Below, one piece after another: positions 3,254 to 8,089 of a stretch of DNA of 11,244 bases (the stretch's first letter is position 1; every line of letters starts with the position of its first letter). The translations under genes were made by a program, and so were the position numbers. The stretch is from a virus, in the UHGV virus genome UHGV-0101776; one strand, given 5' to 3'. The notes beneath the pieces were generated by a model that was not told the origin of the DNA, searched no databases, and saw only the letters and a list, made by a program, of their open reading frames with translations.

Positions 3254-3330
3254 TGGATTGATCCAGTAATTCCCTCAGAATTGCATATCAATTTGCTTAG
3301 AGTCCCCGGCGGCCACCGGGGATTTTTTCT
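3254..3330 (+). ncRNA. oop: oop-like antisense RNA overlapping the cII 3' end, with intrinsic terminator
   Basis: The segment gatccagtaat...cctcagaa... ends in the hairpin ccccgg-cggcca-ccgggg plus attttttcttt (3305-3330). It closely resembles my recollection of lambda oop RNA in sequence, length (about 77 nt) and position antisense to the cII 3' end. CATAAT at 3240-3245 is a candidate -10 for Po. Confidence 0.6.
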
Positions 3331-3571
3331 TTGTGATTCCATCAAGCGCATACTTAAAAGCCCTACTAATCGGACTGATGTCTGATGCCATTCCGAAAGC
3401 ACACAAGACTGAAGCAATAAATCTCCAGTCCGTTCTGCTTATCTTCGATTCATGACAGCCAATCATCTTTGCCAGACCGCGCTGGGTAAGCGTTGACAGG
3501 TTGATGAGTAAATCTGTTTCTGCGCGATCAACGTCACGCTGGGATAGTTTGCTGTAACTTGTTTGTTCCAT
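3275..3571 (-). CDS. cII: CII-like transcriptional activator
   Basis: 98 aa, with clear similarity to lambda CII in the HTH and C-terminal parts (...KISRTDW...KKKSPVAAGDSKQIDMQF versus lambda ...QISRWKRDW...KKRPAATERSEQIQMEF). Sits immediately downstream of cro and nutR. Confidence 0.85.
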   Translation of the reverse strand: MEQTSYSKLSQRDVDRAETDLLINLSTLTQRGLAKMIGCHESKISRTDWRFIASVLCAFGMASDISPISRAFKYALDGITKKKSPVAAGDSKQIDMQF

Positions 3572-3709: not shown

Positions 3710-3943
3710 TTATGCTGCTGATGCTCTACGCGATACGAACACCAGATTTTCCTTTTTCACAGGTTTATAACCCGTGAAATTACGAGTGGCTTCTTCGATT
3801 GCATTCGCTTTATCTGGGGAAGCTCTTCGAAACCCATATGCAATCTGATCAAGATAGCCAACTGAAGTATTCGCTAATGCGGCGAGTCGCTTCCATTCCT
3901 CACTAGAAGCCTCTTTTCGCCAGCGTAGTAGTTCATTACTCAT
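3710..3943 (-). CDS. cro: Cro-like HTH repressor
   Basis: 77-aa ORF divergent from cI across the operator region, first gene of the operon containing cII. GGAGG SD 6 nt before the ATG. HTH-like segment WKRLAALANTSVGYLDQIAYG. Confidence 0.7.
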   Translation of the reverse strand: MSNELLRWRKEASSEEWKRLAALANTSVGYLDQIAYGFRRASPDKANAIEEATRNFTGYKPVKKENLVFVSRRASAA

Positions 3944-4056: not shown

Positions 4057-4761
4057 ATGGAAAACAAAGATATTCGCAAATCGAATCTGGCGTTTTTGCT
4101 AGATGAGCATAAAAAAATCGCGGGTAACACTAATGCAAGCTTTGCCGATAAGCTTGGAGTTAGCCCTTCTCAACTCACGCAAGTCTCCGGTGAAAAAAGC
4201 ACTCGAAACATAGGGGATAAACTAGCAAGAAAATTCGAAGCCGCACTTGGGTTACCTAATGGGTGGCTTGATTTGGTACATGATGTAACACCAATTGCAT
4301 CATGCTCAGATTCTTTAACTTTTGTCGGTCAGGTAAGAAAAGGGTTAGTGCGCGTGGTTGGTGAGGCAATTCTTGGTGTTGATGGTGCCATCGAGATGAC
4401 CGAAGAGCGCGATGGGTGGCTCAAGATTTATAGCGATGATCCAGATGCCTTTGGTCTTCGTGTGAAAGGAGACAGCATGTGGCCTAGAATAAAATCAGGA
4501 GAATATGTACTCATTGAGCCTAACACCAAAGTATTCCCGGGGGATGAGGTGTTTGTCAGAACCGTTGAAGGACACAACATGATCAAGATTCTTGGCTATG
4601 ACAGAGATGGAGAATACCAATTTACAAGCATCAACCAGGACCACAGGCCAATAACGTTACCTTATCATCAAGTAGCAAAGGTGGAGTATGTGGCTGGTAT
4701 TCTGAAGCAATCTCGTCATCTGGATGACATCGAGGCAAGGGAGTGGCTGAAAAGTTTGTGA
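4057..4761 (+). CDS. cI: CI-type prophage repressor (N-terminal HTH, C-terminal S24/LexA-like autopeptidase)
   Basis: 234 aa. N-terminal HTH region; C-terminal domain with the GDSMWP serine motif typical of LexA/CI self-cleaving repressors. SD GAGGGAG upstream. Divergent from cro. Confidence 0.88.
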   Translation: MENKDIRKSNLAFLLDEHKKIAGNTNASFADKLGVSPSQLTQVSGEKSTRNIGDKLARKFEAALGLPNGWLDLVHDVTPIASCSDSLTFVGQVRKGLVRVVGEAILGVDGAIEMTEERDGWLKIYSDDPDAFGLRVKGDSMWPRIKSGEYVLIEPNTKVFPGDEVFVRTVEGHNMIKILGYDRDGEYQFTSINQDHRPITLPYHQVAKVEYVAGILKQSRHLDDIEAREWLKSL

Positions 4762-5893: not shown

Positions 5894-5920
5894 ACCCGGC
5901 CTCAGTGCCGGGTTTTCTTT
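5894..5920 (+). terminator. Rho-independent terminator ending the cI-moron transcription unit
   Basis: Hairpin acccggc-ctcagt-gccgggt followed by tttcttt, immediately after the protein B stop and before OL. Confidence 0.7.
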
Positions 5921-6046: not shown

Positions 6047-6145
6047 CTGCAATCAAATAAAAAACCATAATAATCAACAGGATATTTGAAAACTAAAACA
6101 ATTTATCATTTTGCTATTGCCATTAATTTATCATTTCGATAAAGT
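6047..6145 (+). promoter_or_regulatory. OL operator region with candidate PL promoter
   Basis: ATTTATC-containing operator-like sites at 6047-6054 (inverted), 6101-6116 (ATTTATCATTTTGCTA, near-identical to the OR site at 4021-4036) and the palindrome TTTATCATTTCGATAAA at 6127-6143. Candidate PL: -35 TTGCCA (6117-6122), 17-bp spacer, -10 TAAAGT (6140-6145). This is the same architecture as the candidate PR. Confidence 0.7.
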
Positions 6146-6191: not shown

Positions 6192-6237
6192 GCTCTTTAA
6201 ACAACGTCGAACACTCGACTACGTGGCTGAAAAGCCA
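6192..6237 (+). promoter_or_regulatory. nutL-like site (boxA plus boxB hairpin)
   Basis: boxA-like GCTCTTTAA at 6192-6200 and, about 23 nt downstream, the hairpin UGGCU-GAAA-AGCCA (6224-6237). The architecture and boxA-boxB spacing match the nutR candidate. Confidence 0.55.
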
Positions 6238-6260
6238 GATCACCCAACCACATAAGCTGT

Positions 6261-6313
6261 GGGATGCAATGCCGAAGCAACTCTCTCAGGAGTAGCTTCG
6301 GGATTGCATCGCC
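6261..6313 (+). promoter_or_regulatory. Long imperfect hairpin in the N leader (candidate RNase III processing or translation-control element)
   Basis: Arms gggatgcaatgccgaagc (6261-6278) and gcttcgggattgcatcgcc (6295-6313) pair over about 17 bp with one mismatch and one bulge, enclosing a 16-nt loop. Located between nutL and the N SD (GGGAGG at 6325-6330). Confidence 0.45.
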
Positions 6314-6335
6314 AGAGTTTATTCGGGAGGAATCC

Positions 6336-6608
6336 ATGTCCAGAAAAACAGAATTTAAAGGAACCGCAGCTTCTCGCCGTAGAGAGCGTCGCGCAAATCT
6401 GCAAAGTCAGGAGGCGATCAGCTCCGACAAGCTACACAGGCCAACCCCTTCACGAGTGGTCTTGCAATGCAAGCGCAAACCAGCAATGAGAGCAGAAGTG
6501 ATAACTCTGACAACGTTGACCAGAAAATATGAAGGTTCAACTTGTCTTCCGAACGTAGCTCTTTACGCGGCAGGCTACCGGAAATCAAAACAACTGACGG
6601 CGAGATGA
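6336..6608 (+). CDS. N: N-like transcription antitermination protein
   Basis: 90 aa. N-terminal arginine-rich motif ASRRRERRANLQ, matching the RRRERRA of the lambda N ARM. Positioned downstream of PL/nutL with a leader of about 185 nt. The ORF-track frame 6264..6608 extends upstream; the ATG at 6336 has the SD. Confidence 0.7.
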   Translation: MSRKTEFKGTAASRRRERRANLQSQEAISSDKLHRPTPSRVVLQCKRKPAMRAEVITLTTLTRKYEGSTCLPNVALYAAGYRKSKQLTAR

Positions 6609-6624
6609 TAAATTCATTTGCTAA

Positions 6625-7206
6625 TTACTTGTTTTTGCCATGCTTATCCTGAGCGATAAGTTCATCCATAAGGCTGTCTGCCTTCCCGGCAAACCGAATG
6701 TAGCACTCATTTCTATAGCGTTCCGGGATAACAAAACGGTCGATTTCAGGATATCCAGTAGCAGAAGGTATCCGAATAAGAAGCCCTTTTTCGAGCAATG
6801 AGATTGCTTCAGGGCTTCCCTTTTCTGTCTTTAGCTGGTTATTCGCGGCTACAGCGAATGCCAAATACGCTCTTTCTCCAAGAGTTAACGAATCAAACAA
6901 ATCTTGCACATATTTTTCTTCTTTAGATTTGCGCTTCTGAGCAGCGGATACCTCAATTCTTTCAGTCACAGCGTGATAAGCGGAATTAACAACACCGTTA
7001 AGCACATAGCTAACGCAGAACAACAGGATGTAATACATCCAATAATAAGGAAGGATTTCTGGATTATGCAGGTTTATCCATTCTTTTACGCTTACCGGCA
7101 TAACAATAATCAATATGATCAGGATGATTAGCATATGAATCAACTGTTTAAGTGTCATTCCTTGCAGGAAAAAATGCATTAGTTCCTGCCACCATGAGTT
7201 GTTCAT
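6625..7206 (-). CDS. sieB: Superinfection exclusion protein B (SieB-like) membrane protein
   Basis: 193 aa with two N-terminal hydrophobic helices (LIHMLIILIILIIVMPV, YYWMYYILLFCVSYVL). Transcribed opposite to N, in the same relative position as lambda sieB. Identity is from recollection of the family. Confidence 0.65.
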   Translation of the reverse strand: MNNSWWQELMHFFLQGMTLKQLIHMLIILIILIIVMPVSVKEWINLHNPEILPYYWMYYILLFCVSYVLNGVVNSAYHAVTERIEVSAAQKRKSKEEKYVQDLFDSLTLGERAYLAFAVAANNQLKTEKGSPEAISLLEKGLLIRIPSATGYPEIDRFVIPERYRNECYIRFAGKADSLMDELIAQDKHGKNK

Positions 7207-7436: not shown

Positions 7437-7620
7437 TAAAAATCAATGGTGTGGACAATTCAAGCGATGCAATGGATGCAAGCTGCAATCGGAATGCATG
7501 GTTAAGCCTGAAGAAATGTTTCCTGTAATGGAAGATGGGAAATATGTCGATAAATGGGCAATACGAACGACGGCAATGATTGCCAGAGAACTTGGTAAAC
7601 AGAACAACAAGGCTGCCTAA
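7420..7620 (+). CDS. ral: Ral-like restriction alleviation protein
   Basis: 66 aa, MTTTIDKNQWCGQFKRCNGCKLQSECMVKPEEMFPVMEDGKYVDKWAIRTTAMIARELGKQNNKAA. Matches my recollection of lambda Ral in length and sequence. Sits in the PL operon between N/sieB and cIII. Confidence 0.6.
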   Translation: MTTTIDKNQWCGQFKRCNGCKLQSECMVKPEEMFPVMEDGKYVDKWAIRTTAMIARELGKQNNKAA

Positions 7621-7756
7621 TGGTGGCCTTTATTTTTGGCATAAACAACAGAATAAACACTGCACTGTGTATTCATTCCAACGAGTGAATACACGGAGCA
7701 ATGTCGCTCGTAACTAAACAGGAGCCGACTTGTTCTGATTATTGGAAATCTTCTTT

Positions 7757-7782
7757 GCCCTCCAATGTGAGGGCTTTTTTAT
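7757..7782 (+). terminator. Rho-independent terminator between ral and cIII
   Basis: Hairpin gccctc-caatgt-gagggc followed by ttttttat. Genes downstream would need N-mediated antitermination. Confidence 0.7.
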
Positions 7783-7983: not shown

Positions 7984-8089
7984 AACACTTATGGCTATCC
8001 AGACTAAATTCACTATCGCCACTTTTATTGGCGATGAAAAGATGTTTCGTGAAGCCGTAGAAGCCTACAGAAAATGGAGGTCAAAATGA
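7976..8089 (+). CDS. Small protein overlapping the cIII 3' end, Kil-like by position
   Basis: 37 aa, MDKTLMAIQTKFTIATFIGDEKMFREAVEAYRKWRSK. The start overlaps the cIII stop, as lambda kil does. The sequence resembles my uncertain recollection of the lambda Kil N-terminus. Confidence 0.4.
   Translation: MDKTLMAIQTKFTIATFIGDEKMFREAVEAYRKWRSK

Follow-up and report, generated by a model that had tools for sequence, protein, structure and literature searches.

A 71-nt hairpin in the N leader of a lambdoid phage as a probable short-form counterpart of the lambda RNase III stem-loop

Introduction

Lambdoid phages use N as the first switch of their lytic development. In lambda, RNase III cuts a stem-loop in the N leader, between nutL and the N ribosome-binding site (RBS) (PMC4419217, PMC5725501). 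Translation of N is repressed by N itself together with Nus factors assembled at nutL, across a stretch of RNA described as highly structured (PMC5725501, where Wilson 1997 and 2002 are cited for the repression); Kameyama 1991 is cited for the lambda stem-loop. Cleavage uncouples the nutL complex from N, and N synthesis tracks the cellular level of RNase III (PMC4419217, PMC5725501).

Here we ask whether a long dyad in the N leader of the viral genome UHGV-0101776 is an element of this kind. The window analysed is an 11,244-nt stretch of this genome; an earlier note, made from its letters alone, had pointed to the dyad as a candidate RNase III site controlling N translation. Our literature search, in which older phage work was thinly covered, returned no papers on this hairpin or its cleavage in the window's N family. 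The N type concerned is carried by many Shiga-toxin (Stx) phages; if RNase III sets N output as it does in lambda, host physiology would feed into prophage induction and, indirectly, into the development of toxin phages.

The immunity region and the pL transcript

The window represents a lambdoid immunity region, oriented along pL. The minus strand encodes cII (3275-3571) and a cro-sized ORF (3710-3943), and the plus strand encodes a cI-type repressor with an S24 peptidase domain (4057-4761), followed by two more plus-strand ORFs and a terminator-like site (5894-5913). All leader features described below are on the plus strand. A consensus scan identified a pL promoter-like site at 6117-6145 (-35 TTGCCA, 17-nt spacer, -10 TAAAGT), from which transcription would begin at about 6152; the sequence from 6152, ATCAGCAGGACGC, is that of the lambda pL transcript start, and it also begins every other N leader that was fetched.

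The nutL site (6192-6237) was read from the sequence and also seen in folds; it comprises boxA (GCTCTTTAA, 6192-6200), a spacer hairpin (GTCGA/TCGAC, 6206-6219), and boxB (UGGCU-GAAA-AGCCA, 6224-6237), a layout shared by all relatives. The spacer element is a 5-bp hairpin, GTCGA ACAC TCGAC, which separates boxA from boxB; boxB itself may be read as a stem of 5 bp closed by a GAAA loop, as against the five-base loop of lambda. The HK97 and SPN9CC-type leaders are without a recognisable boxA (GCTCTT[TA]A).

The N antitermination gene (6336-6608) encodes a 90-aa protein of the VT2-Sakai/Stx-phage type, residues 1-90 of which match the Pfam family N_peptide (PF25694, E = 1.6e-32). It shares 98-99% of its residues with N from VT2-Sakai and many other Stx phages, and only about 42% with N of the HK97 and P22 types; it resembles lambda N only in the C-terminal 24 residues. 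A Shine-Dalgarno sequence (SD; GGGAGG, 6325-6330) lies 5 nt upstream of the ATG at 6336 and is conserved in relatives. Downstream of N, the minus strand encodes sieB (6625-7206).

The leader hairpin

Folding and the repeat finder together define a hairpin of 30 pairs and 71 nt at 6252-6322, which is the strongest inverted repeat across the 11.2-kb window. The earlier note had claimed a 17-bp imperfect dyad at 6261-6313, and this was confirmed: the repeat finder returned 21-nt arms (6263-6283 and 6290-6310) that are 90% complementary, and 17 pairs lie within 6261-6313 (6261-6262/6312-6313, 6263-6270/6303-6310, and 6272-6278/6295-6301), together with one G.G mismatch (6271.6302), one bulged G (6311), and 16 nt between the arms. 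As an outer limit, 6261-6313 describes the core of the element but not the whole, since the helix runs on via the 6260-6314 pair and 6252-6258/6316-6322. The 16-nt loop of the original description is likewise accurate as the distance between the 17-bp arms, but in the window these 16 nt fold further, into a 5-bp stem with a 4-nt loop. The placement between nutL and the N SD holds, with boxB (6224-6237), hairpin (6252-6322), SD (6325-6330), and ATG (6336) following one another; the hairpin is on the pL transcript, and its 3' end is 2 nt before the SD.

The structure can be divided into a basal helix (6252-6258/6316-6322 and 6260-6262/6312-6314), the one-base bulge G6311 on the 3' strand, a middle helix (6263-6270/6303-6310 and 6272-6278/6295-6301), and an apical stem (6280-6284/6289-6293, loop 6285-6288) that is not kept in most relatives. 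The RNA of 6255-6320 folds at -41.6 kcal/mol, compared with -18.4 +/- 2.9 kcal/mol for 200 dinucleotide shuffles (z = -8.05, 0 of 200 as good), and with more flank the 6252-6322 hairpin folds at -45 to -48 kcal/mol. An alternative pairing of 6272-6284 with 6314-6326 (13 nt at 85%) was considered and rejected as much weaker than the main helix. In a search against Rfam, the hairpin was below the gathering threshold for any family, the best match being at chance level (mir-1467, 19.5 bits vs. a threshold of 90).

The second-best inverted repeat in the window is at 7657-7704 (22-nt arms, 82%, 4-nt loop), downstream of sieB, and is flanked by two terminator-like hairpins with T runs (approximately 7611-7640 and 7757-7782).

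Variants of the leader and the start of N

A total of 196 loci from viral contigs, collected by N protein plus a flanking DNA pattern, yielded 23 distinct versions of the window's leader; an N protein scan with one genome per species gave only 4 loci. Across the 23 versions, the lower 25 pairs of the hairpin are nearly invariant, and 16 of the 30 pairs never vary. Six pairs vary on one side yet stay paired, mostly by A-U to G.U or C-G to U.G changes, and a few single variants break one pair. Only window-like variants have the C6272-G6301 pair and the 5 bp at the apex; the window carries the best-paired version of the hairpin, at -48 kcal/mol compared with -33 to -36 kcal/mol for the Stx-phage versions. 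Covariation within these 23 versions was not significant, with values inside the range of shuffles, the variants differing too little from each other. At a threshold of at least 90% identity, this leader type is present in 764 of 5426 complete E. coli genomes, and the exact version of the window in two.

The same variants bear on whether the region codes for protein, with the dyad incidental to the N-terminus of a 114-aa N that would start from the ATG at 6264-6266, inside the stem. This ATG is in frame with N, the frame is open in 19 of the 23 variants, and N is annotated in this way in several phage records, among them the N CDS of the VT2-Sakai record (AP000363.1). Nevertheless, the frame is broken by a 1-nt deletion in one variant (L002) and by a 2-nt gain plus a stop codon in another (L149), the ATG is GTG in the Shigella 75/02 group, and the codon lacks an SD and is buried in the stem, the only strong SD being that before the ATG at 6336. 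The RefSeq start is at the position equal to 6336, and the Pfam profile is satisfied by 90 aa. We therefore give almost no credence to a coding role for the dyad; the ATG at 6264 is not a real start, and a true N start at 6336, for a protein of 90 aa, is confirmed against those records that start inside the hairpin.

A covarying basal helix across N families

For comparison across N families, the N leaders of lambda, HK97, a P22-like phage, HK629, 1H12, SPN9CC, NM-3, an Enterobacter phage, mEpX2, and an E. albertii prophage were folded. A large stem-loop occurs at the same place in 11 of 11 N leaders of different N families, according to a common plan: transcript start, nut site, and then the large stem-loop, the 3' arm of which stops a few bases before the SD. 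The base of the stem-loop reads AAGCTGTGGGATGCAAT ... ATTGCATCGCCAGAGTTTAT in the window, GAGCTTTGGGATGCGAT ... ATCGCATCACCAAAGTTCAT in SPN9CC, and GGCTTTGGGGTGTGTG ... CACACACCACCAAAGC in lambda; the bases in other N families are alike, and like that of the window. Further leaders were obtained by scanning viral contigs for the conserved transcript start.

From these leaders a gapless alignment (A2) was built, consisting of the 19-nt 5' arm and the 20-nt 3' arm joined by GAAA for 38 distinct leaders, with the reference structure for pair counts drawn from the folds of lambda and the window. In the window, the 5' arm corresponds to 6252-6270, homologous to lambda +79 to +97 (AAGGCUUUGGGGUGUGUGA), and the 3' arm to 6303-6322, which includes the bulge G6311 (A in most relatives and in lambda). 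Pairing is observed in 92% of cells, a percentage inflated by the placement of the 5' arms by complementarity score; these arms always fall on a conserved TTTGG motif, so that the register is not free. Compensatory changes occur at 14 of the 19 pairs. There are 156 double-change cells, compared with 42.8 +/- 6.5 in shuffles (0 of 500 as high), and the covariation score is 0.596, falling to 0.106 or less if partners are shifted by 1-3 columns. From the alignment alone, RNAalifold arrived at 15 of these pairs, and 13 of those carry compensatory changes. In the window, 18 of the 19 A2 columns are paired and the bulge falls at G6311; a frame of the CTTTGG/CCAAAG type with a one-base bulge in the 3' strand is common to the window, lambda, and the other leaders. 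Judged from this alignment, the basal helix of the window is homologous to the basal helix of the lambda N leader and covaries with it.

In the cross-family alignment, G.U cells outnumber A.C cells (34 vs. 10), and the window hairpin folds about 10 kcal/mol better as the plus strand (-45.4 kcal/mol) than as the minus strand (-35.3 kcal/mol). On both grounds, selection acts on the pL RNA (plus strand) and not on the DNA or on the opposite transcript. These results bear directly on the reading that the dyad works at the DNA level, by binding a dimeric protein or by forming a cruciform. A long, near-perfect palindrome near an immunity region might suggest such a role; the sequence changes across leaders while pairing is kept, however, which is the opposite of what a protein-binding palindrome would show, the G.U excess and the strand difference of 10 kcal/mol speak for RNA, and the dyad lies within the transcribed leader, 100 nt past the operators. 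We regard a role as DNA as highly improbable.

Another reading takes the hairpin for an intrinsic terminator or attenuator, which would curb transcription from pL ahead of N. If the stem is counted as 6260-6314 only, it is G+C-rich and followed by GAGUUUAUU, which speaks for this reading. But the U residues at 6318-6320 and 6322 lie within the helix, paired with 6252-6258, and the actual tail is UCGGGAGG; the homologous helices elsewhere are followed by CUAACUGAC or UUCAUCAGG, with no U runs. The terminator scan was silent at the hairpin, although it called both the site at 5894-5913 and a minus-strand site at 6219-6206. Furthermore, N must be made before any N exists for read-through. Termination at this hairpin is thus very unlikely.

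Fit to RNase III determinants

We take the RNase III cuts in the lambda leader to lie between +88 and +89 and between +197 and +198. On A2 these map between columns 10 and 11 and between columns 35 and 36, giving a 2-nt 3' overhang. By homology to these sites, the predicted cuts in the window are between G6262 and G6263 on the 5' strand and, also following the 2-nt stagger rule, between C6313 and A6314 on the 3' strand; cutting there would produce a 2-nt 3' overhang and shorten the leader of the N mRNA to 22 nt. The placement of the proximal boxes on A2 depends on the lambda sites assumed here.

The known preferences of the enzyme can be compared with this placement. A staggered double cut by RNase III leaves a 2-nt 3' overhang, and the pairs between the cuts are preferably G-C in vivo (PMC6212723). 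The central pairs between the predicted cuts are G6261-C6313 and G6262-C6312, and these are G-C in 36 and 38 of the 38 leaders, respectively. For E. coli RNase III, position 2 of the proximal box is A-U or U-A, and G-C or C-G at this position blocks binding (PMC1540722); in the window, position 2 is U6265-A6308 on the upper side and U6258-A6316 on the lower side. Across leaders, only U-A or A-U is found at the corresponding columns 13/30 (38 of 38) and 6/38 (37 of 38), and the neighbouring columns switch freely among G-C, C-G, A-U, and U-A. Position 1, at which G-C is preferred (PMC1540722, PMC3867540), is mostly G-C across the 38 leaders. The idealized E. coli substrate is a two-turn helix that extends for some 11 bp or more to one side of the cut (PMC3867540). 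The window agrees with this, having approximately 11 positions of helix beneath the predicted cut and approximately 22 over it.

The fit is poorer at two points. Position 4 of the proximal box, which adjoins the scissile bond, is expected to be A-U or U-A, and G-C there is a catalytic antideterminant in a model substrate (PMC1540722); position 4 in the window is U6260-A6314 on the lower side and G6263-C6310, nominally an antideterminant, on the upper side, although lambda also has G-C there. At position 3, the lower side of the window has a G.G mismatch.

This pattern, symmetric in the A-U-only columns 13/30 and 6/38, argues both for the lambda cut sites assumed here and for RNase III as the agent of selection. 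The proposal that the dyad is a candidate RNase III site in a lambda-like position is supported, and by more than analogy: the basal helix is homologous to that of lambda and covaries with it across the 38 leaders. These 38 different helices sharing one frame constitute a compact natural test set, and the cross-family alignment makes specific predictions for two sets of pairs, those restricted to A-U and the central G-C pairs, with two pairs in each.

These determinants also weigh on the reading that the hairpin is a structural spacer or tether only, which holds the nutL-bound N-Nus-RNA polymerase beside the N RBS without being cut by RNase III, and which may also stabilise the mRNA. In its favour, the helix places 6243-6249 next to the SD in the predicted fold; the upper position 4 G-C and the lower G.G mismatch are not ideal for cleavage; and a compact structured loop is invoked for repression in lambda (PMC5725501). 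Against this, lambda has the same position 4 G-C yet is cut, and the columns that refuse G-C are exactly the RNase III position-2 columns, a restriction that a mere spacer would not need. An uncut tether deserves consideration but is, in our judgement, unlikely.

Proposed control of N translation

We consider it probable, by homology with lambda, that the hairpin is a short-form counterpart of the lambda N-leader RNase III stem-loop, with cleavage predicted and N tuned as it is there. For the window leader, we infer from this homology that RNase III would cleave, at the sites given above, and would thereby affect N translation. The pL transcript would form the hairpin in the 5' leader of the N mRNA, and host RNase III would bind the helix of about 30 bp and cut both strands of its conserved base in a staggered manner (predicted at 6262/6263 and 6313/6314). 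Once cut, the N message would have lost both nutL and the excised hairpin and would begin 22 nt before the AUG. The nutL-bound N/Nus complex would be separated from the N RBS, so that repression would be lifted and N output would be set by the level of RNase III.

A different route, in which the hairpin directly masks the SD and processing unmasks it, was evaluated from predicted folding energies. In the predicted fold of the unprocessed leader, CCCAACC at 6243-6249, which lies at the foot of the hairpin and is kept in all relatives seen, pairs with four G residues of the SD as an optional, weak extension of the helix. The predicted energy for opening the N initiation region is 7.3 kcal/mol in the unprocessed and 6.6 kcal/mol in the processed leader of the window, 7.5 and 8.2 kcal/mol, respectively, in the VT2-Sakai version, and 8.8 and 5.7 kcal/mol in lambda. 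Direct masking is not supported for this family: processing shifts the opening energy by less than 1 kcal/mol, and in the reverse direction in VT2-Sakai. As the folding energies do not predict masking of the SD, control of translation is, in these models, more likely to operate via separation of nutL from the RBS than via unmasking.

The upper part of the stem-loop

Above the conserved base, N-leader stem-loops are highly mosaic, with 41 to approximately 230 nt between the arms (leaders L084, L214, L240, L247, L248, L260, L318, and others). The same lambda-type N gene is found with differing tops, of 70, 119, 133, 144, 159, and 229 nt, and an apical module, GAATTGCAGC...GATAAGCA, is common to many unrelated N types.

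In one IMG/VR contig (L297, 691-760), the top of the N leader is a tRNA-like element, for which the conserved basal helix (GGUGUGG/CCACACC) serves as the acceptor stem. ARAGORN calls this element as a 70-nt tRNA-Leu(TAG), with a shortened anticodon arm; the Rfam tRNA model picks it up when searched locally (37.1 bits, threshold 29, E = 1.2e-6) but misses it in gathering mode. Such an element could be a handle for processing of the RNase P type, replacing or acting beside RNase III. Two other leaders (L248, approximately 8003-8030, and L261) have T-arm-like sequences, GGTTCGACTCC and GGTTCAAATCC, directly ahead of the 3' basal arm; no tRNA was called in these two leaders by ARAGORN or Rfam, the sole match being weak and tmRNA-like (11 bits). 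ARAGORN called no tRNA in the window.

The stem-loop might be a two-part device, with a conserved RNase III base and a freely exchangeable top that carries differing cargo (from none in the window to approximately 230 nt, with the tRNA-like element of L297 as one example), although we hold this to be quite doubtful. In that case, the part cut out might itself function as a small RNA or offer a handle to another processing enzyme, such as RNase P, and the window would be the minimal natural form, defining what the base alone must do.

Comparison with known systems

The probable RNase III stem-loop of the window is an element of an ordinary, known kind; what it adds is a further N family and a minimal form of 71 nt. 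The closest point of reference is the lambda stem-loop, which is at the same place on the pL transcript and has a homologous basal helix; the one-base bulge in its 3' strand, its two central G-C pairs, and its A-U-only positions all recur in the window. The predicted processed leader is of similar length, at 22 nt in the window vs. 25 nt in lambda (the latter calculated from the lambda cut sites assumed above). The two elements differ in that the window has 71 nt in a single continuous helix, whereas lambda has approximately 120 nt and a branched top; in the window one basal pair is replaced by a G.G mismatch, and the bulge is G rather than the A of lambda. Unlike in lambda, where the opening energy falls from 8.8 to 5.7 kcal/mol, folding predicts no unmasking of the SD on processing in the window. 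The N family and nutL of the window also differ from those of lambda.

The stem-loops of the HK97/H-19B, P22, and SPN9CC types have the same architecture and the same covarying basal helix; SPN9CC is closest to the window in sequence (GAGCTTTGGGATGCGATG ... ATCGCATCACCAAAGTTCAT). The tops in these types are mosaic, 41 to approximately 230 nt in length, and often include GAATTGCAGC...GATAAGCA, whereas the top in the window family is a plain extension of the helix.

Among RNase III substrates outside the N leaders, T7 R1.1, its minimal form, and rncO, the rnc leader, resemble the window in having a helix of two or more turns, with A-U or U-A at position 2 and G-C at position 1; a staggered double cut would likewise be expected in a leader governing the gene that follows it. 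These substrates have no sequence relation to the window, and T7 R1.1 is cut once, in an internal loop, in contrast to the double cut in a regular helix with a bulge that is predicted for the window.
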